64,000 bases of DNA from an uncultured bacterium (GTDB lineage Bacteria > Acidobacteriota > Thermoanaerobaculia > Multivoradales > JAHZIX01), in NCBI GenBank assembly GCA_965368975.1, contig CBDUPA010000028.1, positions 1 through 64,000 on the forward strand, read 5' to 3'. Positions 31,384-64,000 of this stretch are shown piece by piece. The translations under genes were made by a program, and so were the position numbers. Positions within the stretch are counted from its first letter, which is position 1. The number at the start of each line of letters is the position of its first letter. The notes below the pieces were generated by a model that was given only the letters and a program-made list of their open reading frames with translations, was not told the DNA's origin and searched no databases.

Positions 31384-31384
31384 C

Positions 31385-35042: not shown

Positions 35043-35098
35043 TGGGACTCCTTCTTGGCTTAGGCAACCACGCGCTGATCCTGAACTGGTCGGATCTC

Positions 35099-35979: not shown

Positions 35980-38900
35980 CTAATCGCTCCGTTCACTGCT
36001 ACTTGTACGGGGCTATCGCCGACAATTGCAAGCTTGAAGTCTTGAATGGAATTGAAAACCCTCTCAAACAGAGGATCGAGGACTCTCCCGTCCGGAAGCA
36101 GCACGGCAAGGTGAAAGCCATATCGATGCTCCGTCAGGCCAGGTACCGTGTCGAGTGTGAGTCCCGACGGCGGAAGTAGAGAAACCTTCTCGCCATACCC
36201 GAGGTGGTTAATTGCCGCACCCGTAAGATCTCTGCAGTCCCCTCCTGGACAACCCGCTTTCACTGTTCGGAGCAGATCACCGAACTCGCTGTTGGCGTTC
36301 ACGCTCACCCGGCGCAACGAGCGAAGAGCCTGATTTCCGAACTTCTCTCGTAGCCCCTTGACCAGGCGAATCGCCTTGCCGAGTGCGTAGGTGGCCACTC
36401 CGACGGTGACCATCGTCAAGATGATATCTCTGATATTCAATTGTCCCCGATTCGAGGCGCCTTCGATCAGCAAGAACCCAACGTCAGCCTGAATACCGCT
36501 GACGATCGATCGAATTGTCGATGCGACCTGGAGCTCTCCTACTCCACCAACGAATTTTCCACTCGGATCCGTCCACCTCACCGGATTGGCCAGCGCATAC
36601 AGATACCGATGCCTGGACATCGGTTCGTTCGCCAACCCTGCAAACGGGTCCATCGACGCAAAACGTCCCACCCCCGGCACCATCCACCGAGCCCGCAGAT
36701 AGTCCAGCCCTGTAACGGCATCCCGTATCTCGCCAGCGAACAGGTACGGGTTCCGCGTCGAGCCCGACTGGTGCACCAGATCCCCGAACGACGCGAAAAC
36801 GTAGACATCCGTGAGCGCTCCGACCTCATCCGACAAGCCGCGAATCGATCCCAGCCCATCGGCCAGGTAGAAAGCCGTGGTGCTTCCGTCCAACGCGGCC
36901 AGCAGATCCGTACCCCGGACGTAGTACCGCTCTCCATCCGCGCTCAACTCCAACACGACCTGGATCAGTCCGGACGCCGGATCGACCAAGTACTCGACAC
37001 CATCCGTCGCGACGCGCGTGCCGTCCGCGTCATAGCCGTGACGCACGGTCGTTCCGTCCGCCAACCGCACCTCGACGAGCCGATCGTCGAAGTCCCAGCT
37101 GAACGTGGCACCCGCGGCACCGCTCTGGCCGACCAGGTTTCCGTTGACGTCCCAGGTGAACGTCACATCACCTTCAGTCAGCAACCGGTCACGGTCATCG
37201 AAGGTCGACGCAACGACCTCGACTCCATCTGTCGTCTCGTGGGTGCGCTGCGTCCGGTTACCCACGGCGTCGTATTCGAAGCCGTCGCGGAAGATCAGCA
37301 CGCCGTCAGCCTCGGTGACGGTCTCGCGAGTCAAGCGGGAGACCGGATCGTAGTCGTAAGCGCGCGTCGTGCCATCGGCCTCGTCGATGCGAACGCGGTT
37401 ACCGGTGGCGTCGAGGGTGTAGGCGTAGGACTGCAGCACCTCGCCAGCCGCATTCGTCGACACCAGGTCGAGCAGGCGGTTGCGGGCGTCGTGCTGGTAG
37501 GTGGTGGTGACGCCGTTCGGGAGCTGTAGCTCGGTACGGTTGCCGACGGCATCGAAGCTCTGCTGATAGGCGCGACCGTCCGGATCGGTGACGCTGGTCA
37601 TGCGTGCGGCAGCATCGAAGCCGTACGATGTCGTGAAGGTCTGCCCGGCTGCCTCTGCTGTCATGGAAGTGCGTAAGCCTGCAGCGTCGTAGCCGTAGCT
37701 CAGGCGACGACCGGCGGGATCGGTCAGCTGGACGAGGCGATCGCGGACATCGTGCCCGTAGCTTGTCGTGCCGCGACCGTCGGTGACGCTGGCGCGCTCG
37801 CCGGTGGGCGTGTAGCTGAAGCTGACCGTGGAGCCGTCCGGGTAGCGACGGCTGAGCAGCTGATCGAGCGCGTCGAAGGTGAAACTCGTGGTACGCCCAG
37901 CGAAGTCGGTCCGGCTGACCTGGTTGCCCGCAAGATCGAACGCGAACGTCTCGCGTGCCCCGTCGGGCAGAATGCGGGCGGTTTGACGACCGAGCGCATC
38001 GAACTCGTAGCGGGTGACGTGGCCGTTGGCGTCGGTTTGCGAAACGAGATCGCCAAGCTCGTCGAAGCTGTATCGAGTCACCTGGTCCAGGGCATCGACG
38101 ACGGCGACCAGCCTGCCCAGCGAGTCATATTGGAACTCGGTGACGCGGCCGACTTCGTCCGTCATGCTGAGGCGTCGGCCCAGCGCATCGTACGAAGTCT
38201 TCGTGGTGGTGCCGTCAGGGTGGGTGACCTGGATCGGCAAGCCGGCAGCGTCGTAGGTGGTTTGCGCGGTGTGACCGTTGGCGTCGGTGACGGTGGTCAG
38301 GTTGCCGGCGGTGTCGAAGCCGAACGTCGTGCGGTGGCCCAGCGGATCGATGATGGCCGTGCGGCGGCCAGCGGCGTCATATTCGAAGCGGGTGACCGAG
38401 CCGCGTTCGTCGGTGGTGGTGAGCAGGCGACCGTTGGCGTCGTAGGAGCGCTGGACAGTGCTGCCGTCGGGATAGGTGGTGAGCAGAAGTCGGCCTTCAG
38501 GATCGTAGGCGTAGCTCGTCACGCGGCCGGCGCGGTCGGTGGCGGTCAGGACTCGACCTTCGGCGTCGTAGGTCTGTGCTTCGTTGAGTCCATCCGCGTA
38601 GCTCGTCGTGGTCAGGCGGCCGAGGGCATCGAACACATACGAGGTCTTGCGGCCGAGGGGATCGGCCTCTTCGATGACCTGACCGAGGGCGTTGTAGGCG
38701 CTGCGCAGCACGGCGCCATCGGGCAGCCGGGTCTCGACGAGGCGGTTGAGTTCGTCATGGACGAAGCGACTCTCGACGACCTCCAGACCGGCTGGCGTGG
38801 TGCGCGTGACACGCTCAGCGCTACGGTTGCCGGCAGCGTCGTGCTGATAGCTGACGGTGATGCCTTCGCTGTCCGTGACGCTGGCAAGACGACCGTTGGC

Positions 38901-41327
38901 GTCGTGGGTGTAGCTCGTCTTGTGACCGAGAGGATCGGTCAGCGTGAGCAGGTCGCCCGCGTTGGTATAGGTGTAGCGCGTGGTTGCGCCAAGCGGGTCC
39001 TGGACGCTGAGCAGGTTACCGACGGCGTCATACGACAGCGCCGTCGTACTGCCCCGCGCGTCGGAGACGGTGAGCGGGCGACCGCTGGCGTCGTAAGTGA
39101 AGCGCGTCGTGGCGCCGAGCGGGTCCGTGACGCTGAGCAGGTCGTTATCGGCGCTGTAGGTGTAGCTCGTGGTGTTGCCGAGGGGATCGCGCTCGGTGAG
39201 CAGGTTGTCGCGCGCATCGAAGGTGCTGACCGTCTCGGCACCGGTCGCGTCGCGCTGGCGTACAACATTGCCGCGCTCGTCGAACTCGAGCAACCGTGAG
39301 TGGCCGAGCCGATCCGTCACGATCTCCTGGCGGCCGTCGAGGTCGTGCTCATAGGCGAACACTTGACCGTTGGCGTCGATGTGGCGCACAAGGCGGCCAT
39401 CTTCGTCGAACTCGTTGCGCACTGGCGAGATGCCGCGCGGGTCTTCCATCGCGTCGAGCAGGTGGCCGGGCTGGTAGCTGTAGCGGGCGGTCTGGTCGAG
39501 CGGATCGGTGGAGGTCAGGAGATCGCCGGTGGTGGCGTCGTAGGCGTAACGCAGGGTGCGACCCGTGGAGTCGATGATCCGGTTGATGCGCCCCTCGGCG
39601 TCTCGCTCGAAGTCGATACCATTGGCAGCCCCGAGCGCCGAGGTGTGTAGGATCCCGGCTTCCGAGAAGTCGACACCGTTGCCGTTGGCGTCCTCGATCC
39701 GCGTCACACCTTCGGCCAAGTCCAGGTCGAACCGCCGACCGTCGCGCGTGACCAGGCGCACCTGCCGAGGCTGGTAGACCTCCAAGGCATCGGCGTCGAC
39801 GAGGTGATTCGTCTCGTTGGCGTAGAAGACATTCGTGCCGTCCAGTATCTCGAGCTGCGCCGACATCGGACCGTCGACGTACTCGAAACCCGCCGTCGCG
39901 AAGCAGCCACCCGCCGCCGTCGCGGGCAGACTCAGGGACAAGCGGAAACGGTAGTGCTCGACATCGGACAGGCGAACTGACGTCAAGTGCGTTTGCGTCT
40001 CGACGACTTGCTGACACGGCAGAGACGCGGCACGGATCTGCCAGCCCTCACCCGGTGTGCGATTGTGGCGCACGGACCCCTTGCGCAGCTCCATCGACCA
40101 GCCGGGACCGAAGTCACCGACACGGCCGAGGCGGGCGTCGCGGCTGTCGTAGGTGCGTAGGACTTCCAGGTCGAGTCCGGACAGCGGGATGCGCAGGTCC
40201 GAGAAGGTCAGCTGGAAATGGCCGATCTTCATCCCGCCCTCGACCGCCACGCTGACGACTTGCTCGCTCGACTGCTCCGCGTAGTCAGTAGCGGTCAGGC
40301 GGAGCTGGTACAAATCGTTGGGCAGCAGCGTCGGGTCGAACCTCGCGAGCGTGCCCGAGGTGGGCGTCTGGCCTTCAGCAAGCGGCAACCACCCTTCCCC
40401 CTCATCCAGACTCGCCGGACGGTAGCTCAGCTCCCAGCTCTGCAAGAGATCGCTGTCGACCTGCGCTGTCACGTCGACCGGCGCGGTGATCTCGTCCAGG
40501 TCCAGCGGTGCCGTCAAGGCGATCTGTGGCGGCGGCCCATGGTTGGCGAAGCGCAGCGTCGTCGCCTCGGTCACCAGTACCCAGTAGCCGCGACCGGGCT
40601 GCATTTGCAGTAGGTCGTTCGCCCACTCCGGGACGTTGGGGTCGTAGACCTCCCACGGGTCCTTCTCGTCGAAGGCGTCGTAGCCGAAGACCCGCAGGTA
40701 CTTGCCTGCGATCGACGACAATGCCGCCGGCACCGGGCGTGGTTGCGCCAGCGGATAGCCGATCAGGTTCCAGCCGGGGCACACCGGAATCTCGGTCACA
40801 GTTGGCTGTTCACCTGCCGGCAACGTCCAGCCACCGGCGGCCGGGGCTTTGAGCCACAGGCCGTAGCGGTGGTCGATCGACGTCAGTTCATTGGCCGGAT
40901 CGCCGGGGGTGTACTGCTTCCAGGCGGCTTCGGCGGCACAGGCGTCCCAGGTCCACGCGCTCGTACCGGCCGGCGCTCCCGCGAGCACCTCCGCCGGAGC
41001 GGTCGACGCCGGTTCGACGGGCAGCGAAACGAGATTGAATTCCTCCTGCAGCGGCAGGTCACCCGCCTTGACGGGCGTCGTAGTGGCCGCGACCGTCTCA
41101 GCCGTGCCGCTGCTCGGCAGGCGCGGTGGCGAAGCCCGGAAGCGCTGCGCGTCGACGCCGTCTTGCTGCTCGGCCTGCTCCGCCGGCAGCGGAACACCCA
41201 GCGCGGGAGGGCTCAGCTGGAGCAACAGAGCGCCGCACAAGAGCTGAGCGGTGAGGTGGCGGAGAGCCTGCCACGAAGTGACGGGACGGACGGGCCCTGG
41301 GGATGCTGCTGAAGGGAGCGAGAGCAT
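35976..41327 (-). CDS. Rhs/YD-repeat polymorphic toxin with signal peptide and papain-like C-terminal tip
   Basis: AGGAGGA RBS; hydrophobic signal; many YD repeats; Rhs core 'YLRARW...GRFASMDP...YLYALANPVRWTDPSG'. Tip 'GGDCRD...YGFHLAV...VLDP'. Confidence 0.93.
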   Translation of the reverse strand: MLSLPSAASPGPVRPVTSWQALRHLTAQLLCGALLLQLSPPALGVPLPAEQAEQQDGVDAQRFRASPPRLPSSGTAETVAATTTPVKAGDLPLQEEFNLVSLPVEPASTAPAEVLAGAPAGTSAWTWDACAAEAAWKQYTPGDPANELTSIDHRYGLWLKAPAAGGWTLPAGEQPTVTEIPVCPGWNLIGYPLAQPRPVPAALSSIAGKYLRVFGYDAFDEKDPWEVYDPNVPEWANDLLQMQPGRGYWVLVTEATTLRFANHGPPPQIALTAPLDLDEITAPVDVTAQVDSDLLQSWELSYRPASLDEGEGWLPLAEGQTPTSGTLARFDPTLLPNDLYQLRLTATDYAEQSSEQVVSVAVEGGMKIGHFQLTFSDLRIPLSGLDLEVLRTYDSRDARLGRVGDFGPGWSMELRKGSVRHNRTPGEGWQIRAASLPCQQVVETQTHLTSVRLSDVEHYRFRLSLSLPATAAGGCFATAGFEYVDGPMSAQLEILDGTNVFYANETNHLVDADALEVYQPRQVRLVTRDGRRFDLDLAEGVTRIEDANGNGVDFSEAGILHTSALGAANGIDFERDAEGRINRIIDSTGRTLRYAYDATTGDLLTSTDPLDQTARYSYQPGHLLDAMEDPRGISPVRNEFDEDGRLVRHIDANGQVFAYEHDLDGRQEIVTDRLGHSRLLEFDERGNVVRQRDATGAETVSTFDARDNLLTERDPLGNTTSYTYSADNDLLSVTDPLGATTRFTYDASGRPLTVSDARGSTTALSYDAVGNLLSVQDPLGATTRYTYTNAGDLLTLTDPLGHKTSYTHDANGRLASVTDSEGITVSYQHDAAGNRSAERVTRTTPAGLEVVESRFVHDELNRLVETRLPDGAVLRSAYNALGQVIEEADPLGRKTSYVFDALGRLTTTSYADGLNEAQTYDAEGRVLTATDRAGRVTSYAYDPEGRLLLTTYPDGSTVQRSYDANGRLLTTTDERGSVTRFEYDAAGRRTAIIDPLGHRTTFGFDTAGNLTTVTDANGHTAQTTYDAAGLPIQVTHPDGTTTKTSYDALGRRLSMTDEVGRVTEFQYDSLGRLVAVVDALDQVTRYSFDELGDLVSQTDANGHVTRYEFDALGRQTARILPDGARETFAFDLAGNQVSRTDFAGRTTSFTFDALDQLLSRRYPDGSTVSFSYTPTGERASVTDGRGTTSYGHDVRDRLVQLTDPAGRRLSYGYDAAGLRTSMTAEAAGQTFTTSYGFDAAARMTSVTDPDGRAYQQSFDAVGNRTELQLPNGVTTTYQHDARNRLLDLVSTNAAGEVLQSYAYTLDATGNRVRIDEADGTTRAYDYDPVSRLTRETVTEADGVLIFRDGFEYDAVGNRTQRTHETTDGVEVVASTFDDRDRLLTEGDVTFTWDVNGNLVGQSGAAGATFSWDFDDRLVEVRLADGTTVRHGYDADGTRVATDGVEYLVDPASGLIQVVLELSADGERYYVRGTDLLAALDGSTTAFYLADGLGSIRGLSDEVGALTDVYVFASFGDLVHQSGSTRNPYLFAGEIRDAVTGLDYLRARWMVPGVGRFASMDPFAGLANEPMSRHRYLYALANPVRWTDPSGKFVGGVGELQVASTIRSIVSGIQADVGFLLIEGASNRGQLNIRDIILTMVTVGVATYALGKAIRLVKGLREKFGNQALRSLRRVSVNANSEFGDLLRTVKAGCPGGDCRDLTGAAINHLGYGEKVSLLPPSGLTLDTVPGLTEHRYGFHLAVLLPDGRVLDPLFERVFNSIQDFKLAIVGDSPVQVAVNGAIR

Positions 41328-41682
41328 GTAAAGTCCTCCTGACGACGATTTCAAAGGCCTCAAGGAACCGACTAAGAGACGGATGTCCCAGATCCTCGGA
41401 CCCGAGGCCAAACCTGTCAAGAGGGGATGGCGACTTCGCGCGCTCTGCGGCGAATTGGCTGCCACGAAGACCGCCGCGACCAGCGCAGGGCATGAGAGCG
41501 TGCACGGCTGCTTACCAGACCGGGACCGTCACGCCCTTGCATGAGACTTCATGCCAGCAGGCCCCGATGGAGTCCCGCTCAACAGAATCTCACTCAAGTA
41601 CTGAGCAGCTACAATAGACTAAGTCACTACAGGTAAATGCTTTACGTCAAGCGCAAGACTTGCTCAATAACTACTAACTATA

Positions 41683-41696: not shown

Positions 41697-41991
41697 ATGA
41701 GCTCATGTTTTCAGGGTGCTCGAACGACTTGCAGGAGAGCACGCACATCGCCTCTAAGTACTGGAATAAATTGACTTGGAGTATTTCAGGAGCTGCCAGG
41801 AGGCATCGCCAAGTTAACGTCCCGCAGGACCCCCCTCTGGACCCACTTGCCCCGACTGGGTCCCGTCAGGAGTGCCTGGCGGCCCGAGCAATGGAAACCC
41901 TTGAAGGGAAACAAGACACTGAATCAGCACCACCTGAAACCAACTGGACAAACAGCGGGTACGCCTTTGGCCGATTCAAGGCCCTAAGAGC

Positions 41992-43458
41992 TTACTTGCC
42001 TCTCTTTCCGTGACACTTCTTAAATTTTCTCCCAGACCCACAAGGGCAAGGCTCGTTGCGGCCGACATTTCGATAGATAGGGTCCATCTGTCTCGCAGCT
42101 TCTTTGGCTGCAGCTGGTGTTGAATCATCGGAAAGAATCTGACAACTCCTCGGCACCTTTCTCTTAATTCTCGTCGTTGCCTGGGCACGATCAGCCAACG
42201 GAAACCGAAGCTGATAATGCAACTGAACCTCCTTAGCCTTCGAAATCAGCTCGTCTTCGCTCAGGCAAGCGGAGTCAGATCCGAAAAGGACGTGCGCTCT
42301 TTCGTGGACAAAGTCGTATACATACCTGAAGCATTCCGTAAATGTGGTAAACTTTTCCTCGAATAGCGGATCTTCCTCGATCAGATTCGTCGCGATAACA
42401 CCTACCTCGGATAGCCGCTCCTTACAGGTCTCGTAGAATTCCTGAGTCGCCAACCTATACGGGTGATGTCCAGCTCCGCTGAAGCAGTCCACAAAAATGA
42501 CATCATATGGGGGCTCGTCGAGCCTCTCCGCCAAAAATGCCCGACCATCTTCTCTAAAGAGGCGCATTCGATCATCTTGCTCAATAGCAAAATAGCGGTA
42601 AGCCAAGGGAATTACATCCTCCTCGATCTCGGTATTATCGAACGTGCCATCAAGGAGATAGTGATGGAGAACCATCGGAATTCGCCCGCCGCCGAAGCCT
42701 AACATATAGAAACGCTTAGGTGTCGACACAAAGACAAGGCAAAGTATCATCGCCTGAGTATAGATCCCAAGAAGATTGAATGGGTCGTTCAGATCAATTC
42801 GGGACATAATGCCACTCAAATCTTCCATCCGATCGTCGCCATAATACATCTGAACCTGATCTTCTTGCTTGAACAAGATAATGCTTTGAGTTCCTCGCCG
42901 GATGCGCCTGAGCACGCCATCTTCTGCCTCCTTGAAGTGAACCAACTTGTCTGTAACATGGAGACTATGTCTGGCGTAAGTCCAAAAACGAACTCGATCT
43001 TCACAATCTACTCTATCGATAATGAGAATTCCGTTTAGATGATCTAGTTCATGCTGAATGACAATTGCCTCGAAACCATCTGCATCAAATGCCACGTTGG
43101 CACCACTCAAATCCTGCGCTATCACACTAATCTTCTCCGCTCGCTTCACGTCAACTCGAAAGCCCGGCGTGCTCTTACATCCCTCTTGCCTTGAAACAAC
43201 TTGCCCAGATTCCCTTACTATCTGAGGATTAATGAGGACTTTGTAGTCTCTGACGTTGTCGGTACGATCTGGATGAATGATACATACTCTTAAATCGACT
43301 CCGATCTGTGGTGCAGCTAACCCTACGCCAGTAGTTGAGTACAGCGTGTCAGCGAGATCCTCGACAAGGCTCTGTATAGTCTCATCAACTGCCTGTACTG
43401 CCTTGGCGGGAGGCAAGCCGCCAAGTTCCGTGCAAGGTCTGATTTTCCTTATGGCCAT
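41992..43458 (-). CDS. def: Peptide deformylase fused to a spermidine-synthase-like SAM-binding domain and a SEC-C motif
   Basis: PDF motifs 'GVGLAAPQIG', 'EGCKS', 'QHELDHLNG'; 'MLGFGGG', 'EIEEDV', 'DGRAFL', 'YDVIFVDCF'; C-terminal 'GRNEPCPCGSGRKFKKCHG'. Confidence 0.9.
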   Translation of the reverse strand: MAIRKIRPCTELGGLPPAKAVQAVDETIQSLVEDLADTLYSTTGVGLAAPQIGVDLRVCIIHPDRTDNVRDYKVLINPQIVRESGQVVSRQEGCKSTPGFRVDVKRAEKISVIAQDLSGANVAFDADGFEAIVIQHELDHLNGILIIDRVDCEDRVRFWTYARHSLHVTDKLVHFKEAEDGVLRRIRRGTQSIILFKQEDQVQMYYGDDRMEDLSGIMSRIDLNDPFNLLGIYTQAMILCLVFVSTPKRFYMLGFGGGRIPMVLHHYLLDGTFDNTEIEEDVIPLAYRYFAIEQDDRMRLFREDGRAFLAERLDEPPYDVIFVDCFSGAGHHPYRLATQEFYETCKERLSEVGVIATNLIEEDPLFEEKFTTFTECFRYVYDFVHERAHVLFGSDSACLSEDELISKAKEVQLHYQLRFPLADRAQATTRIKRKVPRSCQILSDDSTPAAAKEAARQMDPIYRNVGRNEPCPCGSGRKFKKCHGKRGK

Positions 43459-43461
43459 TCA

Positions 43462-44688
43462 CTAGCTCCGCATGAATTCTAAGTGTCTTCCGAGCAGTTG
43501 TATCCGATACTGGATCCATTCAAGGCGAACCCTTGAACATAAAAGGGAATCAACTTCTCGACCGAGCGCCAGTGTATCACGCAGTCCAAGAATGGCATCT
43601 GCTGCTGCGCTTTGAACCGAGGTGACTGCAGTAAATTCCTTCTCAAACTCTGCAAGAGTTCTGCTTGCATCTTCCCAAGTCACGGCTTCAGCTCTGCCTT
43701 CACGTTCGGGCAGATAGTATCGATGTTGTCGTTGTGGGGAGAAGTGCGAGTCCCATTTCAAGAAATCACGAGCCTCCCTCCGCAGGATATCGGCTCTGAG
43801 AAGGTTCGCAACGAAAAGCCACTCCTTACTGTCTCCATTCTTGGTAACAGCGATAAGATTCAGAACACTTTCCTTAGCTCGATCTAAGTTCCCTGCATCC
43901 ATACTGCAACGTGCGGATACTTCTAGTGCTGATAAGTAGCCCCAGTGGTGTCCGGTCTCGGCAGCGATTACGAGAGCTTCCTCGCTCCAGTAGCCTGCTT
44001 CGTCGTCATCCCCTTGCAATCTAAAAAAATCTGCTTTCTTCGTTGCTAGAGTCATTCTAGAATAGGATGGGCATCCACTTTCAGTATTCTCCCACCCCTT
44101 GAGGAGATCGCCTGTAACCGCCAGATTTCCTGCCACTAATTCTAGATCAACCAAATTGGACAAATACTCGTCGGCTAGAAAACCGGGACCAACTGTATCG
44201 TTCTTAAAGGCCATCCAGGATTCACGCGCCAACGCAAGTGCATCTCTTAACTCACCGCGCGCTTTCATCAATTCTGAGAGTTTTCGTAACTCCATGTGCC
44301 GCCCAGCCAACTGGCCGATATACGACGAGGCTTCTGCCAAGTGCCGGTATGCAGACTGAAGCGTGCCATACGCAATCGGGATCTCTTGAGCCGCCTCAAT
44401 ATACTTGACCACACCAACATAGTAGTCGTGAGATCGGCCCTTGACCTCAGAGTTGACTAACGGAGCCAGAATCGCCAATGCGCCGATCAGTCGTCCACTC
44501 TCGAAGTAACATGCTCCAGTCCAGCGTCTTAGCATGGTTTCTTCGGCAGGATTCTCGTCAGGCTCCAAGAGGTCGAGCGCCTCCTTAAAATTGGACCCAG
44601 CTACCGCAACTTCAGAAGCAGAATATGCCTGATGGGCAATACTGCTTAGAATCTGTCTTCGAGCTGCACGCTGATGAGAGTCTAACAT
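43462..44688 (-). CDS. TPR-like helical repeat protein
   Basis: 'LSELMKARGELRDALALARES', 'KADFFRLQGDDDEA'; tightly coupled within the operon. Confidence 0.65.
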   Translation of the reverse strand: MLDSHQRAARRQILSSIAHQAYSASEVAVAGSNFKEALDLLEPDENPAEETMLRRWTGACYFESGRLIGALAILAPLVNSEVKGRSHDYYVGVVKYIEAAQEIPIAYGTLQSAYRHLAEASSYIGQLAGRHMELRKLSELMKARGELRDALALARESWMAFKNDTVGPGFLADEYLSNLVDLELVAGNLAVTGDLLKGWENTESGCPSYSRMTLATKKADFFRLQGDDDEAGYWSEEALVIAAETGHHWGYLSALEVSARCSMDAGNLDRAKESVLNLIAVTKNGDSKEWLFVANLLRADILRREARDFLKWDSHFSPQRQHRYYLPEREGRAEAVTWEDASRTLAEFEKEFTAVTSVQSAAADAILGLRDTLALGREVDSLLCSRVRLEWIQYRIQLLGRHLEFMRS

Positions 44689-44689
44689 T

Positions 44690-47302
44690 TCAGATGACTA
44701 GCTTTCGAAGCTCTGCCGTAATACTCCTTACTACGAACTCCTCAAGCTCTAGCCTCGCAATAAGATCGCTCTCGTCTGTCGCCAGGAAATCCTCTATCGT
44801 AGTAAATTCCCCTAGTATTCGCAGTATGTCAGCATCCTCAAGTCTTGTACGTGAGAAGTTCTCCAGAGTCTTCCTCGATAAGAATCGCTTCTCTCTACTC
44901 GCAACTAATTTCGCTAGGTCGGAGTGTGCTAGTTTCCCATCCCGCTCAAGCGCTTGCCTGATGTCATCTGCGATATCAATTGACGGGGCTGACGATTCGC
45001 GGTACTCAATGTATAGACGGTCACGCAAATCAGCGGGAACTCTCTCAACTACCTCTGCGCGGCGAAGGACAAAGATGGGTCTACCATTATCAGGCATCAT
45101 TGCAGCCCCTAATTCAAACATTACATTCGGATTCAAGTCCGAGATCTCAGCCACAAAGCCCATGCATGAATCAAAATGGGCACGGATGTTGCCAAGCAGG
45201 GACGGATTCAGGGTGCGATCTCGTGCGAGTAAAATCTCGAAGAAGTACGGTGCAGTTTCGAAAATTTCTCTTACCGCTGTCTCAACGTTCGAGTAAGCCT
45301 CATCAAAGGGAGTGATCATGAAGAGGCGCACATGATCCGCCTTCACCGTACTGCCGGCTCTCGGCCCGGAATACGACGTCACCCTACTTAGCCTAGAGAG
45401 CTTGACTTCCTTCTCGAACGACCTGAGTTTGTCGTCTTTGTCCACTAAACTCTGTAACAAATCTATCAGCTGCGAGTGAAGGGCATCTGCATTCGCCTTC
45501 GTGAGGTAGTTCTGTGCATATAAAACCGCGCTATGATAGATTCCTATTAAAATGTCATGGGGGACATCATTTTGATCCAGCTCCGAGATCTGCTTAAGCA
45601 AAGGGGACTGCGCATTCAGGTTCAAGAATATGGCACTTTGCTTGGCGCTCTTGAGCGCTTCGCGGGTTATCTCTTCCAATCCTTTTGCTAGCCACGGGTG
45701 CTCAGAGAAGTAACGTAGCGCTCCGCTGTCCGCTGATGACTTCGGAAACAACAGTACAGCAGGCAACTCCGGAGGATCGAACTTCCGGACTTGAACTCTA
45801 ATCTCTTGCCCTCCTCCAAAACCACGCCGCAGAACCGCATCCAAGATTCTCGCCACCCCTTCGACCGGATCATTGTCTGGCACTCGATGAAACAGAGCAG
45901 GGTCGTCAGACTCATCGATTGCCTGTAGAAAGACAGCATGTTCATTCTGCTCAGAATAGCGCTTAAGGAGTTCCTCCTCAAACACGCGCCCGGCATTAAT
46001 TACTACCCAATCGCGAGCTTCAGCCAAACGGTAGCATTGTGCCGCGCTGTCTCCGTGACGGAAATAATAGATCGGGACTCTCATTTCCTTGTCAGCCCTG
46101 GGGCTGTTCTTCGCGATATAATCTTGTAGCGCAAGCGGACCTCTATTTGTCTCGAACAGTAAGACATGCGCGATTTGATCAAAGAACTCGCGATGATAGT
46201 AGGCCATTCCCTTGAGGTGATAGTGATGCCAAGCATTGATCCTTTTGAAAGTTAAGGGATCTGAGCTAGAGATCTCCATCAGACGCGCTACAATAACTTC
46301 ACCTAGCTTACTCCGGAGCATCTCGAATGCACTATCTCGGCGAACATCATCTCGGGCAGCGTTCGGTTCGAGGTCAGCTGTATTGAGTACGCCCCGGACG
46401 AACTTGGCCCAACGAGGAAGGAGTGTAGGATCGGCTTCCCTGATAAACATTCGCCGAATGAAGAGATCAACCACGCCCGTAGTATTCACGTCTGGCACAT
46501 GCCGATCAGAGATCCAAAGGACTCCTTGTACCTGGCAGGGTTCGCTAAGGTTGATTGGAATCACATCGAGTGGAACCTCACCTTCGTCACCACAACGGTG
46601 ACGAATAAAATCTCGGTATGCGCTCTCTTTTTCTTCGTCGCAGGAGTAGGCTGTTCGGTCCCAAGGTGCATGAATTCGGTTGACTGGTCCCGCAGAATTT
46701 AAGGCTATAGGAAAAGGAACAAGATCGCAAAACTTGATAATGGAAGATCGAAGTCTTCGCTCAGCGAGCAGGTACGAATGCTCGCTCCGAATTGTGAGTT
46801 CAACTTCTGTCCCGATAACCCTACGAGGTATCGAAGAAAACTCGCACTCCGTGGATCCTCTGTTGGACCACTCAAAAGCGTCTTGGGTTCCGTGCCGTTG
46901 CGTTCTCACAATGACCCTCTCGGCTACTACAAAGGCCGAAAGAAGCCCAATACCAAACTGTCCGATTAGTCTGTTTGCAACTGCGAGTTCATGTTCGGTA
47001 TCTTGGCTACTGGCTCTGGCTGTTCCAGTCCCAGTAGAGCCAATTACTGAGAGGAAGTTTCGAATGTCAACCTCGCTCATCCCAAGTCCATTGTCTTGAA
47101 TGGAAAGCTGTCCCTCGTCCGGCGAGATTGAGATTTCAATCTTGCCTGCGAGGTCCGGTTCGACTGCTAGACGGCGAACGATTCCATCATGAGCATTCTG
47201 TACGAGTTCGCGCACAAAGACGTCGGGATGTGTGTAGAGACTTCGTGCAAGTAGCTCGATGAGACCCTCAAAGTTCGAGGTCATTTGAATCACTTCTGAC
47301 AT
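44690..47302 (-). CDS. HSP90/HtpG-like GHKL ATPase fused to a C-terminal nucleoside-deoxyribosyltransferase/TIR-like domain
   Basis: 'FVRELVQNAHD', 'IQDNGLGM', 'IGQFGIGLLSAF', 'GTEV'; C-terminal 'LFMITPF...FVAEISDLNPNVMFELGAA...PADL'. AAGGAGG RBS before MSEVIQ. Confidence 0.88.
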   Translation of the reverse strand: MSEVIQMTSNFEGLIELLARSLYTHPDVFVRELVQNAHDGIVRRLAVEPDLAGKIEISISPDEGQLSIQDNGLGMSEVDIRNFLSVIGSTGTGTARASSQDTEHELAVANRLIGQFGIGLLSAFVVAERVIVRTQRHGTQDAFEWSNRGSTECEFSSIPRRVIGTEVELTIRSEHSYLLAERRLRSSIIKFCDLVPFPIALNSAGPVNRIHAPWDRTAYSCDEEKESAYRDFIRHRCGDEGEVPLDVIPINLSEPCQVQGVLWISDRHVPDVNTTGVVDLFIRRMFIREADPTLLPRWAKFVRGVLNTADLEPNAARDDVRRDSAFEMLRSKLGEVIVARLMEISSSDPLTFKRINAWHHYHLKGMAYYHREFFDQIAHVLLFETNRGPLALQDYIAKNSPRADKEMRVPIYYFRHGDSAAQCYRLAEARDWVVINAGRVFEEELLKRYSEQNEHAVFLQAIDESDDPALFHRVPDNDPVEGVARILDAVLRRGFGGGQEIRVQVRKFDPPELPAVLLFPKSSADSGALRYFSEHPWLAKGLEEITREALKSAKQSAIFLNLNAQSPLLKQISELDQNDVPHDILIGIYHSAVLYAQNYLTKANADALHSQLIDLLQSLVDKDDKLRSFEKEVKLSRLSRVTSYSGPRAGSTVKADHVRLFMITPFDEAYSNVETAVREIFETAPYFFEILLARDRTLNPSLLGNIRAHFDSCMGFVAEISDLNPNVMFELGAAMMPDNGRPIFVLRRAEVVERVPADLRDRLYIEYRESSAPSIDIADDIRQALERDGKLAHSDLAKLVASREKRFLSRKTLENFSRTRLEDADILRILGEFTTIEDFLATDESDLIARLELEEFVVRSITAELRKLVI

Positions 47303-48557
47303 AAGTCCGATCCTCCTTCGTGGACGAAATCTCCTCAGACTAGACCCAAGGGCTAGGTAAGTCCGTGCGATCTCCCTTGGAGGAGGGAAACCTCGAACTC
47401 GCCCTCTCACAATAGGTACTCTTGATCCTGTCGCTCCGCCAACAGAGCAGCTTCCCATCCGGGCCGCGCCTTGCTCACCAGCAAACACAGTACAGGCGCT
47501 GAGGACTCTATCTGCTTGTATCCCGCTCTCAGCAGCTTTGGAGCCCTATGAAGGCTGTTAGAAGTAAATCTTCTAATAGCACATGTAGCGCTGTCAATTC
47601 GCTGTGAATATAGCTCATCAGATCGTTTGCGGCTTACTGCATGTGTATATGTAGATCTTATCTTGCAGCATCTTCGATCTTCCATCTCTAGCTAGGTGGC
47701 AATGATATTGCTTTAGGCATGGCCAATCCCGATCAGGCACCTTCCAGTGCGGTGTTCCGGGCCGACGGGAGATGTCCCCGAGATCGGGCGATAAATCGCC
47801 GACCCTCGTCACGATATCGCCGGTCGCTACGAGTTCGTATCGGCATCCCAGTTCGCGGATTCCGGGACTGGGTAACGAGCCTAGCGAGGGTGTGCGGTCC
47901 GCGGCCGACGGTACCCGCCGGGGTGCTGAGGGCTGGCACCCTCGACGCTACAGGGGTGCACGGGGGTGGCACCCCAGCGGCACCCTTGTTGTACCTCCGG
48001 CTTAATTGTCAAACCGAAACGGAAAATGACGAGGCACCTTGGCAAACGAGGCTGCAGCCAAGAGCCTGAGTTGACGGCGCATATCTTGTCGAAGTCGGAA
48101 CCAGAGCGAGCGATCCCGAACTCGGGTAAGCAACTGTAACACTGAGGTTTAGACTGATCCAGAGTCTGCGGTCGCTCCAGTCAGTTCGGGACCGAACTTC
48201 GGGATGGCCGGCAGGATGTCCAGAAGTGCCGATAGCGCGGCGCCTCGGTTGCAATTCAGCCATGTAGAGCTTTGGAAGTAGCCGTCTCGTGGTACGAATG
48301 CATGCAAGACTTCATGTAATGAGGTAGGAAGGGCAGGTACCCCGGATGGAGGCGGGTACGGCGAGGGTGGAGCGGGTGGGTACGAGGGGTGGTACCCCGT
48401 GCCCGACCGGCGTCGCGGAGTACCGGCTAGGGTACCCCGTCGGAGCCGGGTTGCATCGCCGGTCAGCAAGGCTGGGCGGTGCCTGGAAAGCAGAGAAACG
48501 GCAGGGGTGCAGGTGGCTACCCGGCTACCTCTGAGGCGATGGAGAGAGGCTGCCAGA

Positions 48558-49466
48558 TCAGGCAGCCAAGGAGGGGATGTCGAGGCTTTTCACAGCCTGG
48601 CGCTTGGCTGCCTCGCCTCTGCGGTCGTACCGAAGAGTCGTGTTGGCGTTGGCGTGGCCAGCGAGTTGCTGGACGGTGAAGACATCGACGCCAGCACTCA
48701 GCAAGTGCGTAACGGTTGAACGTCTAAGATCGTGGGCCGAGAAGTGGTCTACACCGGCTTGCTCCTGACGGCGGCGCAGGATGTAGGCGATGCAGCTGCC
48801 GCGCAGGCGGGTGTGGCGGACTTCTCCGGTCTGGCGGATCGGGCAGAACAGCGGGCCCGGCTCGTCACCCCGCACGTTGAGCCAGGCGGCCAGGTACTGG
48901 CAGCCAGCAGCGGTCAGGTAGACCGTGCGCTCTTTGTTGCCCTTGCCGTGCACGAGGATGGTTCCATCCTCCAGGTCGACATTGGCGACATCGAGCCTGG
49001 CGACCTCTCCTCTGCGCAGGCCGCAGCCGTAGAGGACGGTGAGCAGGGCGGCATCGCGGGCGCACTTGGGGCTGGCGTCGCTGGTGCAGGAGCTGAACAA
49101 CTGCACGATCTCCGGCATCTCCAGAGCGCGGCCGGCGGGCAGCTTGGAGACGCGGACGTTTGGCACCGCGGCGGCGCGTTGGTACGTGTCGGCGTCGATC
49201 AGGCCCAGCGCCCAGCTCTGCTTGAGCACGCCGCGCAGCGTCGACAGGATCTTGTTGACGGTCGCGGGTTGGTAGCGGGCGACCAGGGCTTGCCGGACGG
49301 CCATGCCGTCAGCGTAGGTCAGGCGCCACCAGGGGTAGGTGTCAATGGTGCGGCTCGGGTCGAGGATATCGACGATCTTGTCGAGGCAGCGGCGCATGCC
49401 TTGGCTGCCTTTGGACAGGCTGGCCATGTAGAGCCGGGCCGGGTTGGCGGTGATGGTCGTTCTCAT
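48558..49466 (-). CDS. XerC/D-like tyrosine recombinase
   Basis: 'RDAALL..LYGCGLRRGE', 'GKGNKER', 'HDLRRS', 'LAGHAN..TT.RY'. Confidence 0.93.
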   Translation of the reverse strand: MRTTITANPARLYMASLSKGSQGMRRCLDKIVDILDPSRTIDTYPWWRLTYADGMAVRQALVARYQPATVNKILSTLRGVLKQSWALGLIDADTYQRAAAVPNVRVSKLPAGRALEMPEIVQLFSSCTSDASPKCARDAALLTVLYGCGLRRGEVARLDVANVDLEDGTILVHGKGNKERTVYLTAAGCQYLAAWLNVRGDEPGPLFCPIRQTGEVRHTRLRGSCIAYILRRRQEQAGVDHFSAHDLRRSTVTHLLSAGVDVFTVQQLAGHANANTTLRYDRRGEAAKRQAVKSLDIPSLAA

Positions 49467-49882
49467 GAAGTGCCCTTTCTCCGGGTGAATGACTTGAAGG
49501 GTGAAACTGGAAAGGAGTCGGCTACGCTTCGTAAGTGTCCTCTTTCTCGTCTCTTGAGTCTCCGTGGACTCCATGGATACGGGATTTCGCGACGACTCGT
49601 CAACGGGGCTGCGTCGGATTTGTTCGGGGAATCGTTCGCGGGTACGACGGTGAGCGGGCAGGCACAGATGGAGGCCTTTGTGACCAAGGCTGTGGAGAGT
49701 GCCTGGAGGGCATGGATGCAGGGATCCAGGTGGTCAGTACCTGGCGGAGTGGTTCCAGGCTGGAGGCAGGCTCTCCACGATGGAGAGCAGTCGTGGAGGG
49801 CTGACAGTGGCCTCGAAGGAAACCGCCCCAATTGGAGCGGCAAAGTGGAGGTGGGGTTCTGAGTCAGCGGGAGATGCGTCCG

Positions 49883-50438: not shown

Positions 50439-51593
50439 TCATCCCGCAAGGATTTCGTCCAACCTGTCTGCCCACCGCGTCAAGGCTTCGAGCTTCTCGG
50501 GACCGTATGTATGACGGTCATACAACTGCGTGACGCCACTCTCGACGTGGTTCAGTAGCTTCGAGACCACCAGGCGCGAGATGCCCATCGAGGTCATGAA
50601 GGTCGCCACCGTGCGGCGCAGATCGTGAGGTACGAAGTCCACCTCCGCCCGCTTCGCGATCCGCTCGGCCGCTTTCTGTGCGGCAACGAAGTGACGCCCC
50701 GGCTTACGCGGACTCGCGAACACCCATTCCGAGATCCCGGTCAGCGGACGTAGCTCGCCGAGCAGCGCCAGCGCCTGCGGTGCGAGCGGTACACGGTGCG
50801 TCAGACCGTTCTTGGCGACATCAGCGGGGATCGTCCACCAAGCTCCGTCGATGTGCCGCCAGCGCATCTTCAGAACCTCAATGCCACGCTGTGCGGTCAG
50901 AAGTCGCATCCGAAACGTCGCCGCCATCACCGGGTACTCGTCGTCAAGCGCACGCCACAGGCGGCGGATCTCCTCTTCGGTCAACACCCGCTCGCGCGGT
51001 CGCTCGCGCGCCGGCATCGGCACGAGCAGACACGGATTGTGCTCGACGAGGCCGCGTCCGATCCCGAAGTTGTAGATCTTCGAGACCAACGCCTTGACCC
51101 GGTTCGCCATGATCGGCGCGCCGCGCGCAACGATCGCGTCGAGCACCTCCCCCACTTCCCTTCTACCGAGACTCTTGGCCTTGCGGCTTCTCCACTGCGG
51201 CAGCAAGTCGACGCGCAGGATTCTGTCGTCTTCCTTCCAGCGCCGCTTCTTGATCTTGGCGTGACGCTCCAAGTAGATCTCGGCAAGTTCCCCAAAGGTC
51301 GCCGCCTCACGCTCGGCGACCTTCTCGACCTGCGGATCCTCGCCTTTGGCAATGGCTGCGAGCTTCTTGCGTGCTTCGTCGCGTGCCTCGGCCAGGCTCA
51401 TCACCGGATAGACGCCCAGGTTCAAGCGGCGCTTGCTGCCGCTGGCACCCTTGTACCGCACGATGAAGGTCTTGCGGCCACTCTTCGAGACCCGCACCCC
51501 GAAGCCCGGCAACTGCTCGTCCCAGTAGTCTGTCATCCAGCGCCCGGCAACGAAGGTGTCGATGGCGCGGTGGGTCAGGTGCGCTTTCGGCAT
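50439..51593 (-). CDS. int: P4-like tyrosine integrase with arm-binding domain
   Basis: 'LPGFGVRVSKSGRKTF', 'LLTAQR..E', 'KNGLTHRVPL', 'HDLRRT', 'LLNH', 'YDRH'. Confidence 0.95.
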   Translation of the reverse strand: MPKAHLTHRAIDTFVAGRWMTDYWDEQLPGFGVRVSKSGRKTFIVRYKGASGSKRRLNLGVYPVMSLAEARDEARKKLAAIAKGEDPQVEKVAEREAATFGELAEIYLERHAKIKKRRWKEDDRILRVDLLPQWRSRKAKSLGRREVGEVLDAIVARGAPIMANRVKALVSKIYNFGIGRGLVEHNPCLLVPMPARERPRERVLTEEEIRRLWRALDDEYPVMAATFRMRLLTAQRGIEVLKMRWRHIDGAWWTIPADVAKNGLTHRVPLAPQALALLGELRPLTGISEWVFASPRKPGRHFVAAQKAAERIAKRAEVDFVPHDLRRTVATFMTSMGISRLVVSKLLNHVESGVTQLYDRHTYGPEKLEALTRWADRLDEILAG

Positions 51594-51596: not shown

Positions 51597-52586
51597 TCAC
51601 CTCACCGGCTGGACCTGGCACCATTGCCCGGCGTCCGCGATGGTGAGCGAGGCGTAGAGGTGCACGCCCAGCGCCGCGCCCGCTTCGCGCAGGCGATGCG
51701 TGAAGCGCTCATCCTGACGGCTCGGCCGCGGATTGCCCGAGGGGTGATTGTGTGCGACGACAATCGCGCGTGCATTGGCGAATAACGCGGGCGCGAGAAT
51801 CCCGCGCGGCTCGGCTTGAGTTGCCGTCATCGTCCCGATGTACGGGACGTCCCAACCGATCACGCGACGCGCACCGTCGAGGAAGAGCACAGCCACAGCT
51901 TCGCGGTCGTAGCTCTGCAGGACCTGCCACAGCAGGGCTGCGGCGTCGCCTTGGCCGCGGACCTGAGGGTAGGTCTGCAACGGTGCATTCGACTCGCGAA
52001 CCAACTCAACACGGAGACGCGGCAGGTCCGGCAGCGAAGGCAACTCGGCAGGGCAAGCTGGACGAATCAGCTGGCGCTGGGGGAGGTTTGTGCGGCACGG
52101 TCGTGGCTTCTTCCGATCGGCCGGCAGCGCGGCAATCAGCGGAGCCAGAGCGCTGTCGTCGAACTCGACTTGTTCAAGTGCCGCCGCAAGGTCGGCACCG
52201 GGCCGCAGGTCGACCCAGCCGAAGCGTGGCACCCGCTCGCCGACCTCGAAGCCGACTTCCTGAGCGAGATCGCGAAAGCGATGGTTGTGGTAGCCGCGAT
52301 GACAGCAGTCCTTGAGACCACGCAGCCCATTCACCCAGTGCACCATTGCGTGCAGCAGCGCGGCCATGACTTCGGACGTCGAACACGTCAGCGCGGGCGC
52401 GGGCACGCGGACCGGTCGCGTTGGTTCCTCGTCCTTATGCCGCGCATCGGGTGAGATGCCTTCCACCCGTACGCGTAGCGGAACGTGCGCCAGCTCAGGG
52501 CCGAAGCGGTCGAGGAGCTGAGCGCAGCAACACTCAAGCTCCTGTTCCGCTCGTTCGACGTCGGTGCCGGTGTCCATGACCGGCAT
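51597..52586 (-). CDS. radC: SprT-like (HAxxH) domain fused to a RadC/JAB domain
   Basis: 'ALLHAMVH...GYHNHRF...A.EVG'; 'DREAVAVLFLD', 'AHNHPSGNPRPSRQD'. Confidence 0.88.
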   Translation of the reverse strand: MPVMDTGTDVERAEQELECCCAQLLDRFGPELAHVPLRVRVEGISPDARHKDEEPTRPVRVPAPALTCSTSEVMAALLHAMVHWVNGLRGLKDCCHRGYHNHRFRDLAQEVGFEVGERVPRFGWVDLRPGADLAAALEQVEFDDSALAPLIAALPADRKKPRPCRTNLPQRQLIRPACPAELPSLPDLPRLRVELVRESNAPLQTYPQVRGQGDAAALLWQVLQSYDREAVAVLFLDGARRVIGWDVPYIGTMTATQAEPRGILAPALFANARAIVVAHNHPSGNPRPSRQDERFTHRLREAGAALGVHLYASLTIADAGQWCQVQPVR

Positions 52587-53000: not shown

Positions 53001-53298
53001 GGGAAGAACCTCCTTTGAGTGGCTAGGCCCGGTTCGGTGTCTCACCACCGGATCGGGCCGCTTGGTTGATCGGATGGCCGAATCTCAACCCCCAAGGGCA
53101 GGGACCGGCCACTCTGACCCACCACTACCTCGGGCCACGGCGAAAGGTCAACCAAGACAGTGCAAGCAGAGCAGGGCACGGCAGCCAGTTACACTAAATC
53201 TCATGCCAGCAGGCCCCGATGGAGGCCCGCACCACGGCTTGCCACTCAAGTGCTGAGCAGCTACAATAGTCTAAGTGTTGGGAACAAAGAGGTTGGAC

Positions 53299-57796: not shown

Positions 57797-57822
57797 TATT
57801 TTCCTCCGATGGAGTGCGCCGA

Positions 57823-63980: not shown

Positions 63981-64000
63981 GCTCTCCCTCACCGCACCGG

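Follow-up and report, generated by a model that had tools for sequence, protein, structure and literature searches.

Does an operon that places an HSP90-type ATPase, a TPR protein and a peptide deformylase side by side act in conflict with foreign genetic elements, or does it serve the ordinary handling of proteins? The question is raised by three genes at positions 41992..47302 of a 64,000-nucleotide stretch of contig CBDUPA010000028.1 (assembly GCA_965368975.1; this whole stretch is hereafter the window), from an uncultured bacterium of the Acidobacteriota. All three lie on the minus strand: gene 1 (47302-44690, 870 aa) encodes an HSP90 core followed by a domain of the TIR/nucleoside deoxyribosyltransferase (NDT) fold and a helical tail, gene 2 (44688-43462, 408 aa) a TPR-like partner protein, and gene 3 (43458-41992, 488 aa) a peptide deformylase joined to a spermidine-synthase-fold transferase and a SEC-C motif. 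We read the operon, with roughly even confidence, as a horizontally acquired NTPase/TPR/TIR-like conflict module, of the defence or abortive-infection type, carrying an accessory effector aimed at protein N-termini. This reading is supported by the C-terminal domain of gene 1, which is of the effector type in homology and fold, by the fusion partners of that domain elsewhere, and by the phyla-mixing clade to which the HSP90 belongs, the mobile setting of low guanine-plus-cytosine (GC) content, and the operonic TIR and SLOG genes of relatives.

Operon layout and the HSP90 paralog with its TIR/NDT-fold domain

The three genes are one translationally coupled operon, as the gaps between them, the one Shine-Dalgarno site and the hairpin after gene 3 indicate. 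The gaps are 1 nt at the gene 1/gene 2 junction (TGA a ATG) and 3 nt at the gene 2/gene 3 junction (TAG tga ATG), in agreement with the spacing of 1-3 nt given in a preliminary description of this DNA. We placed the start of gene 1 at the ATG at 47302, because a Shine-Dalgarno-like GAAGGAGGA read from the sequence (47311..47319, minus strand) lies 8 nt upstream and homologs begin there; the longest possible open reading frame (ORF) would begin with GTG at 47488. A terminator-like hairpin found in a consensus scan (41915..41931, minus strand) lies ~60 nt past the stop of gene 3, and offers positional support only, with 2 terminator-like sites found in 7.2 kb against 5.9 expected. The promoter scan gave no promoter-like site on the minus strand ahead of gene 1; the 5 sites it found, where 5.0 were expected, are all plus-strand ones. 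The described drop in GC content was borne out, at 0.48-0.52 over 41.5-47.5 kb vs 0.62-0.68 on either flank, and the quoted motifs are all present: FMITPF...FVAEISDLNPNVMFELGAA and VRELVQNAHDG in gene 1, and QHELDH in gene 3.

The HSP90-paralog core (residues 1-625; 45428..47302, minus strand) comprises an N-terminal Bergerat ATPase, a middle domain and a C-terminal dimerisation region. We assign gene 1 to the HSP90 family, and not to the HtpG orthologs, because it passes the Pfam cut-off for PF00183 (45.3 bits vs 24.4) and misses the equivalog cut-offs of the NCBIfam models NF010683 ('HSP90 family protein'; E 1e-100 over residues 7-624, 338 bits vs 455) and NF003555 (250.7 vs 371). Across 26 full-length homologs, E32, N36, D70, G74 and G114-Q115-F116-G117-x-G119 (GQFGIG) are invariant, which we take to be the functional ATP-site positions (E32 the catalytic Glu, D70 the adenine-binding Asp) and the GxxGxG lid of the Bergerat fold. 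R317 in the motif PxAARD is likewise invariant and may correspond to the canonical catalytic Arg of the middle domain. Since these residues are conserved throughout, the ATPase is predicted to be competent. Homologs with the ~870-aa architecture occur widely, with identities of 37-49%, in Nostoc, Acidobacteriota, Streptosporangium, Actinoplanes and many metagenomes, and ~640-aa paralogs lacking the C-terminal extension exist as well. Among phage records, 36 contained canonical HtpG-like partial matches only, none of which covers the C-terminal domain of gene 1.

The domain that follows the core (residues ~655-790; 44933..45340, minus strand) is predicted to adopt the NDT/TIR fold, and we regard this assignment, already proposed in the preliminary description and now backed by structure, profile and Pfam evidence, as correct at the level of fold and superfamily. 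An AlphaFold2 model of the C-terminal extension has a mean predicted local distance difference test score (pLDDT) of 92.1. In VIA its top match is the NDT 7o62 (Z 12.5, root-mean-square deviation (rmsd) 2.7, 119 aligned residues), followed by the TIR domain 7fcc (Z 12.2, rmsd 3.0, 133 aligned) a second TIR domain at Z 12.1 and a further chain from these two groups at 12.0. Deoxyribosyltransferases and TIR domains occupy Z 12.5-11.4, where a typical background is 7-8. TIR-STING (7un8, Z 11.6), SARM1 (10.3), TIR-SAVED (7qqk, 9.6) and ThsB (9.2) come lower, and DNPH1/Rcl, LOG-like and YtoQ-like proteins are also matched. The top Foldseek matches are NDT, TIR and DNPH1 chains with modest E-values, one alone reaching ≤1e-3. 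In a set of 47 family members, 29 match PF10137 (the CAP12/Pycsar TIR) at E≤1, the best at 3.3e-6, and 11 match the nucleoside deoxyribosyltransferase family. When the 47-sequence alignment was compared by hhalign with 16 PF10137 domains taken from relatives' genomes, each above the Pfam cut-off, the probability was 95.9% (E 6.4e-9, 67 columns), and NPNVMFELG of the gene 1 domain was paired with RQNVxxELG of PF10137. The Glu of this motif (NPNVMxELG; E730, or E91 of the domain) is kept in ≥90% of the 47 members, opens the helix that follows strand 3, and is paired in the alignment with E82, a near-invariant Glu in the PF10137 domains. We assume E730 to be the catalytic residue.

The extension ends in a helical tail (residues ~791-870; 44693..44932, minus strand), probably a helix-hairpin-helix (HhH), a weak assignment: helices at model positions 155-230 have pLDDT >90, HHH_5 and HHH_2 are each matched by 3 of the 47 members, and the matches to Protein Data Bank (PDB) profiles, the HhH regions of MutY and ERCC1, are weak (E 0.6-1.7).

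A search of 1.84 billion representatives with the TIR/NDT-fold domain returned at least 193 cluster representatives at E≤1e-30, and ten of these were scanned against Pfam for fusion partners. Besides HSP90, the domain is fused to Trypsin_2, to EAD8 together with Trypsin_2, and to a genuine TIR_2, standing N-terminal to TIR_2 and to the trypsin-like peptidases. A 2620-aa protein also bears it, with AAA-type ATPase matches (ATPase_2, AAA_22) below threshold. Such partners are company typical of components of conflict systems.

Copies of the domain also stand alone. One lies between an HSP90 fusion gene and a TPR gene on the Pseudanabaena plasmid NZ_AP017561.1 (L105, 7639-8412), and another ~2 kb upstream of a domain-bearing HSP90 gene in a Microcoleus genome (L044, 3790-5055). 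As for PF10137 proper, the window's own genome encodes a genuine CAP12/Pycsar-type TIR elsewhere (G000:C5:8905-9246, L121; E 6.9e-20), and 19 of the 61 genomes searched (this one, G000, and 60 relatives) have at least one such domain.

The TPR partner and the deformylase-transferase fusion

Gene 2 (43462..44688, minus strand) is, by sequence comparison, the family-specific TPR-like partner of this HSP90 clade. Its match to Pfam TPR_19 is sub-threshold (21.2 bits, E 3.8e-4; cut-off 25), but it aligns by hhalign with 12 partner proteins of other loci (93.8%, E 1.7e-7) and by tblastn with the gene in the same position at the metagenomic locus L086 (39% identity). Homologous partners pass TPR_12 (cut-off 30.1) with 61.8 bits at L087, 45.6 at L098 and 248.7 at L039. 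The claim in the preliminary description that TPR proteins are frequent partners of divergent HtpG paralogs fits what we found: with an iterated hidden Markov model, an adjacent TPR-like partner on the same strand, mostly of 350-450 aa, was identified at 50 of the 80 genome loci encoding the HSP90 paralog, and at 17 of the 18 whose HSP90 bears the C-terminal domain, counts made in the same ORF set on which the model was iterated and with ORF starts taken as the longest possible. The HSP90/TPR pair is a conserved two-gene core to which gene 3 is a recurrent accessory. A complex prediction that combined the TPR alignment (A8) with the fusion alignment (A3) scored 0.00, which says nothing either way. 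The small third ORFs present downstream at other HSP90/TPR loci are mutually dissimilar in sequence and probably not real genes. Two Pyrinomonadaceae loci, whose HSP90s are nearest to the window's but end without the C-terminal domain, each have a VWA-domain gene immediately upstream of the pair (L006, 5501-6766; L026, 5460-6716).

A FastTree phylogeny of 75 HSP90 cores, a quick tree with three long branches, divides the family into two well-supported clades. Clade I (36 rows) contains no C-terminal-domain form and follows taxonomy; clade II (39 rows) holds all 19 C-terminal-domain forms, and its phyla are interleaved.

Gene 3 encodes the fusion of deformylase, transferase and SEC-C motif that the preliminary description had named. 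Its deformylase (residues 1-155; 42994..43458, minus strand) is complete, with motifs intact: it matches PF01327 at E 1e-44 (152.4 bits vs a cut-off of 22.8) and passes the NCBIfam models TIGR00079 (135.5 vs 103.95) and NF001159 (140.7 vs 125). In 25 fusions G46, Q51, G53, E92, C94 and H140 are invariant and H136 and E137 nearly so, which means that all three deformylase motifs (GxGxAAxQ, EGCxS, HExxH) are conserved in the family. The module superposes on solved deformylases in Foldseek with template modelling (TM) scores of 0.85-0.93, and the full model of gene 3 has a pLDDT of 89.1 and a predicted TM score (pTM) of 0.85.

The SEC-C zinc-binding motif at the other end (residues 467-485; 42004..42060, minus strand; PF02810, 39.4 bits vs 20.4) has ligands C471, C473 and C482 invariant and H483 nearly invariant in the 25 fusions. 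Another 24 cluster representatives, 468-526 aa long and 38-49% identical, have the same fusion, all three Pfam domains being present in 23, and on these sequences we consider it a real family. Many ~335-aa forms without the deformylase (transferase + SEC-C) were also found, and a Microcoleus genome has two transferase-only paralogs, neither with an HSP90 or TPR neighbour. The ~335-aa forms have contexts of their own (L084, L085, L091-L096, L122-L125), next to an IS1595 transposase, a SocA/Panacea antitoxin-like gene or housekeeping genes. No fusion was detected in plasmid records, which contained housekeeping deformylases only, and no transferase match in phage records.

Between these ends lies a spermidine-synthase-fold (7-beta-strand) transferase resembling the C-terminal domain of METTL13 (residues ~180-435; 42154..42921, minus strand). 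It passes PF01564 (Spermine_synth; 29 bits vs 22.9) and misses the NCBIfam spermidine-synthase equivalog cut-offs (96 vs 304). In a profile search of the PDB its best match was 5WCJ, the METTL13 C-terminal domain, at E 2.8e-15, with spermidine synthases at E 3e-9 or weaker. METTL13 was absent among the 50 matches listed in a Foldseek search with the whole model, which are mostly deformylases, and this absence is no evidence against a relationship. In the 25 fusions GFGGGR (G256-G258), E277, D295 and D324 do not vary, and G305 is nearly invariant. In spermidine synthases, an acidic residue after the GGG of motif I selects decarboxylated S-adenosylmethionine (AdoMet). The gene 3 family has no acidic residue there and has instead an invariant Arg (GFGGGR), so AdoMet itself would be the favoured donor. 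Of the METTL13 motifs, the motif I Gly, the Post I Glu (E277), the DG motif (G305) and the first Post II Asp (D324) are kept; the second Post II Asp, D577 of METTL13, has no counterpart, with VDCF or VDCY following D324. According to the available part of the METTL13 report, D577 coordinates the peptide substrate, and the C-terminal domain (MT13-C), with a spermidine-synthase-like fold, trimethylates the free N-terminal amine of eEF1A (PMC6109062).

Whether it transfers a methyl or an aminopropyl group, the transferase is predicted to have an amine as its acceptor. The product of a deformylase is the free α-amine of an N-terminal Met, and we infer from this, as our main functional inference on gene 3, that the fusion alkylates the N-termini it has freed. 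Gene 3 thus probably deformylates and then alkylates protein N-termini. The preliminary description had the enzyme acting on nascent N-termini; the kinship of the transferase, by sequence, with an N-terminal methyltransferase fits that part of the proposal.

The full trio recurs. A scan of metagenomes from the gene 3 side, made with a transferase-only alignment, gave 15 loci, five of which have ≥2 kb of upstream sequence. Two of these, L086 (868, 452 and 506 aa) and L087 (877, 352 and 503 aa), hold the trio in the same order; L098 is a variant in which two HSP90 paralogs, of which the second bears the C-terminal domain, are followed by a TPR gene and a transferase without deformylase; L084 and L094 hold the transferase-only form and no HSP90. 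Hence both deformylase-bearing fusions with upstream sequence, plus that of the window, sit in a trio. Compared with the window's HSP90, that of L086 is 50% and that of L087 32% identical, the fusions of both are ~47-56% identical, and the fusion-associated HSP90s occupy two separate subclades of the tree. This divergence of the HSP90s vs the likeness of the fusions, together with the two subclades, points to gene 3 as an accessory cassette that may move between HSP90/TPR cores. Two more HSP90/fusion pairs share a longest contig of equal size (P0004/P0123, 8010; P0016/P0134, 24809) and are a lead only. At L098 the tandem paralogs (1001-5673) are of 722 aa, without the domain, and 835 aa, with it, ahead of the TPR and transferase genes, and the first of them forms a long branch in the tree. 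Of the co-occurrence that the preliminary description wanted checked, then, L086, L087 and the variant L098 supply examples, but the conserved unit is the HSP90/TPR pair, and the fusion accompanies a minority of loci.

Mobile surroundings and the weighing of alternatives

The operon is horizontally acquired, as judged from the lack of the fusion in relatives, the low GC content, the mobile surroundings and the interleaving of phyla in clade II. Searches of 40 relatives of the same family or order gave no gene 3 fusion and nothing beyond housekeeping deformylases, the tails of SecA proteins and ordinary genes of the spermidine-synthase-like kind; the window's genome itself has housekeeping deformylases besides gene 3. 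Because a prophage, an RHS gene, recombinases and an IS91 transposase surround the trio, we place it in a patchwork of mobile DNA. The prophage (~4-33 kb; 4334-33000) includes an M15 peptidase (4334-4996), a 2143-aa tape-measure-like protein (10518-16949), a capsid protein (21961-23550), a portal protein (24101-25351), an HTH_17 excisionase-like protein (27554-28366) and C5 and N6 DNA methylases (30565-32236). It is followed by an NYN + OST-HTH/LOTUS protein (34329-35102) and an 1829-aa RHS/YD-repeat protein (35976-41465, minus strand), whose overlapping follower, a 186-aa ORF (35419-35979), is probably an immunity gene.

On the other side lie tyrosine recombinases at 48558-49574, 50439-51593, 60565-61407 and 62814-63992, the second and fourth of which share the Arm-DNA-bind_3/Phage_int_M architecture, a RadC-like JAB protein (51597-52586) and an IS91-family transposase (59354-60568). 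The four recombinases and the transposase suggest tandem or nested integrative elements, and the trio may be cargo between the prophage body and the integrases at 48.5-51.6 kb. A second low-GC stretch (53000-58600; 0.47-0.53) with four co-directional genes, for a DctP-like solute-binding protein (53603-54787), a 652-aa OmpA-domain protein (54735-56693) and two ORFs of no family (56675-57796 and 57823-58596), looks like another cargo block. The proposal that the trio is cargo of an integrative element thus has in its favour only the GC drop, the first two recombinases and the prophage; the tRNA-integrated island was not confirmed, as described below.

Several loci of relatives have neighbours worth recording. 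TIR_2 and SLOG genes lie downstream at L013 and TIR_2 genes at L056; on a mobilizable Pseudanabaena plasmid the HSP90 homolog stands beside TIR, VWA and AAA genes; and a HEC-01A gene (2.6e-153) lies directly upstream at L087.

A number of observations weigh against a conflict role or against parts of it. For the domain, the window's copy scores 15.0-15.3 bits against PF10137, below the Pfam cut-off of 24.7, and from this and the hhalign probability of 95.9% we class it as a divergent relative of PF10137 and not as a member by the Pfam threshold; furthermore, the modelled fold alone does not separate TIR from NDT, DNPH1 or LOG. For gene 3, the best structural match of the transferase is the Thermus SpeE 3anx (Foldseek E 2.1e-14, 291 columns), and the module retains the N-terminal beta-hairpin domain of aminopropyltransferases; because the structure fits aminopropyltransferases best, methyl and aminopropyl transfer both remain candidates. 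No deformylase or transferase neighbour was found by tblastn at the 80 genome HSP90 loci, including the 18 domain-bearing ones (0/18), and gene 3 is therefore an accessory of the two-gene core. No transferase-family match at E≤1e-25 appeared in 400 genomes of the phylum of L038, a set without a positive control.

The setting adds to these points. ARAGORN found no tRNA gene in the 64-kb window, and no direct or inverted repeats mark an element end around 41.3-48.7 kb. PADLOC-matching neighbours (E≤1e-12) made up 9 of 130 ORFs at domain-bearing loci vs 8 of 106 at clade-I controls, a shortened list, which is no enrichment, and several of these matches are generic (kinases, helicase, repeats); the defence-hotspot setting that the preliminary description had assumed was thus not supported. 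PADLOC-DB 2.0.0 names no system for the operon and gives partial matches only. Finally, clade I, about half of the HSP90 paralog family, has no effector-like domain and is taxon-coherent in the manner of a housekeeping chaperone/co-chaperone pair, and many homologous pairs have housekeeping neighbours (threonine-synthase-like, PGK, PEPCK, SOD, 2-oxoacid dehydrogenase E2).

These last observations are what sustains the main rival, which we hold to be possible but doubtful, namely that the operon is a proteostasis or nascent-chain maturation module with no conflict role. HSP90 and the TPR protein would handle clients, gene 3 would process client N-termini at the ribosome, and the TIR/NDT-like and HhH end would be a regulatory or tethering domain for nucleotides or nucleic acids. 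It gains from the conservation of the HSP90/TPR pair across phyla, its taxonomic coherence in clade I, the many loci with housekeeping neighbours and the unenriched PADLOC matches, and also from the fact that proteins or nascent chains are the targets of all three enzymes, SEC-C being known from SecA, as its Pfam name says. What it does not account for is the clade that carries the C-terminal domain, in which phyla interleave, the low-GC, mobile region and the absence of the operon from the 40 relatives, the fusions of the domain to EAD8, trypsin-like peptidases and TIR_2, the TIR_2 (L013, L056) and SLOG (L013) genes downstream in relatives, and the presence of housekeeping deformylases already in the genome.

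A second alternative keeps the conflict role and reverses the parts: the TIR/NDT-like domain would be a sensor of a nucleotide signal and the deformylase-transferase the sole effector. The N-terminal position of the domain next to genuine TIR_2 and to trypsin-like peptidases, which are the effector-like parts of those proteins, is consistent with this, as are the ligand binders in the fold family (LOG-like, YtoQ-like). We nevertheless find it improbable, since the NVxxELG Glu is kept in ≥90% of the 47 members and aligned with the near-invariant Glu of the PF10137 effectors, and since most loci, 15 of the 18 as we read their neighbourhoods, have no other candidate effector, so that the domain would control nothing.

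Still less probable, in our estimate, is that gene 3 is an accessory deformylase protecting against actinonin-type inhibitors, with its link to HSP90/TPR a matter of hitch-hiking on mobile DNA. Its deformylase motifs are intact, and the available part of a survey reports accessory deformylases to be common on mobile elements and able to lower actinonin susceptibility (PMC12690207). Such protection would leave unexplained the unvarying attachment of a transferase and SEC-C to the deformylase in 24 further representatives, the gene order shared with L086 and L087, whose HSP90s are just 50% and 32% identical to the window's, and the deformylase-less transferase in the same slot at L098, and no biosynthetic genes were found near the trio in the annotated flanks. 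That the three genes are adjacent by chance and share no function is hardly credible, for the rarity of the trio in genome collections is set against gaps of 1 and 3 nt and an order and strand shared by L086 and L087 and, in variant form, by L098, which already contradict it.

Comparison with known systems, proposed mechanism and significance

The preliminary description did not recognise the combination as a named system, and neither does PADLOC. The partial matches are to TmtA and REase_II on the ATPase fold, to mad2 on the transferase, and to E2 and PDC-S12 on SEC-C, with none for the TPR protein. The mad2 model (MADS system) covers residues 237-383 of the gene 3 transferase (2e-10) and also matches small ORFs close to two other HSP90 loci, 15758-16282 of L056 and 2764-3525 of L058 (~4e-20 to 4e-21), one of these loci being in the control clade; these matches may reflect the shared transferase fold.

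Among TIR systems, CAP12 of CBASS (TIR-SAVED, TIR-STING) and the Pycsar PycTIR have the same α/β fold and motif order as the gene 1 domain (NVxxELG...R-P/V...P-[AS]-D...Y). However, no SAVED, STING, cNMP-binding, CD-NTase or cyclase domain is present in the operon or its flanks, and the gene 1 domain extends an HSP90 dimer and has a helical tail behind it, with NDT and DNPH1 fitting the fold equally. Tiamat (TmtA) is described, in the available part of its report, as a GHKL ATPase with TPR-like repeats and a variable C-terminal effector (10.64898/2026.09.30.754977). The operon resembles it in combining a Bergerat-fold ATPase with TPR-like repeats and a C-terminal effector-like domain. Only the ATP-binding fold matches, the PADLOC TmtA models covering residues 5-130 of gene 1 (positions 22-133 of a 1655-position model; E 4e-9), whereas gene 1 is a true HSP90 that also has the middle and C-terminal domains, the TPR protein has a gene of its own, and a TIR/NDT fold takes the place of the PD-(D/E)xK nuclease, no nuclease domain having been found in the operon. 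BcTir/BcTpr, known to us from the available part of its description as a two-gene TIR + TPR anti-phage operon (10.1101/2023.05.26.542521), likewise pairs a TIR-type domain with a separately encoded TPR protein, and as described there it has neither an HSP90 ATPase nor a deformylase-transferase gene.

The tripartite NTPase conflict systems (STAND/Avs-like) follow the same logic of effector, NTPase switch and TPR-type sensor. One sentence in the available part of a recent report states that an HSP90-like NTPase can replace the STAND module (10.64898/2026.10.19.760177). We found no primary description of HSP90-type tripartite systems, HSP90 not being mentioned in the available parts of PMC7159879 and PMC8195603, and the accessible portions of the literature on tripartite NTPase systems likewise contain no mention of a deformylase or SEC-C component.

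For gene 3, the nearest relative by sequence, METTL13-C (MT13-C, 5WCJ), belongs with it to the spermidine-synthase-like branch and shares the GxGGGx-[LI]-P motif I, the Post I Glu, the DG motif and the first Post II Asp. METTL13 differs in being eukaryotic, in having one substrate and in acting after methionine removal, and gene 3 in keeping the beta-hairpin domain of aminopropyltransferases. Gene 3 is also like the accessory deformylases in being an extra, motif-intact deformylase on mobile DNA beside housekeeping copies, but the available part of the survey of these enzymes (PMC12690207) reports a def-fmt fusion only, with no transferase/SEC-C fusion and no chaperone partner. The literature searched, exclusive of supplements and subscription journals, contained no description of the trio, of an HSP90/TIR-like + TPR pairing or of a deformylase-transferase-SEC-C fusion. 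In sum, the logic of effector, NTPase and TPR sensor is already known from STAND systems and Tiamat, and the enzyme architecture of gene 3 appears undescribed.

Under the conflict-module reading, the fast-evolving TPR protein would bind a foreign or stress-derived protein, and the HSP90 dimer would be an ATP-driven switch that rearranges the two C-terminal TIR-like domains, adjacent to each other just past the dimer interface. These domains would then cleave the N-glycosidic bond in NAD+ or another nucleotide by means of E730. Gene 3 would remove the formyl group from the N-terminal formylmethionine (fMet) and alkylate the freed α-amine, most likely by methylation, while its SEC-C tail may hold the enzyme at the ribosome or at a partner; it would be a second effector or a modifier of the client protein. 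The defence function, the sensing of foreign protein and the nature of the output are all what we infer from the domains and their company. A bolder version, unlikely as it stands though by no means negligible, would make the HSP90/TPR pair an immune switch, a prokaryotic counterpart of the plant HSP90-SGT1 pair, set over a fused TIR/NDT-fold N-glycosidase and a ribosome-directed enzyme that turns fMet N-termini, such as those of phage nascent proteins, into N-alkylated and most likely N-methylated ones.

On the conflict reading, the C-terminal TIR/NDT-fold family, with at least 193 representatives, would be a module put to repeated use, one that escapes the present Pfam and PADLOC models when their cut-offs are applied. 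Even if the proteostasis explanation were true, the locus would still represent an uncharacterised and widespread bacterial pair of an HSP90 paralog and its co-chaperone. If the conflict reading holds, gene 3 would be the first enzyme for which a two-step editing of N-termini in one polypeptide is predicted, deformylation leading directly to alkylation of the amine thus freed; on the bolder version, the rewriting of protein N-termini would be a new effector chemistry, serving defence or abortive infection. Under the conflict reading, too, the switches of prokaryotic immunity, so far STAND, AAA+ and GHKL/MORC proteins, would come to include HSP90-type ATPases with a TPR partner dedicated to them, and the dependence of plant TIR receptors on HSP90 and a TPR co-chaperone would become approachable in a bacterial system of two or three genes.

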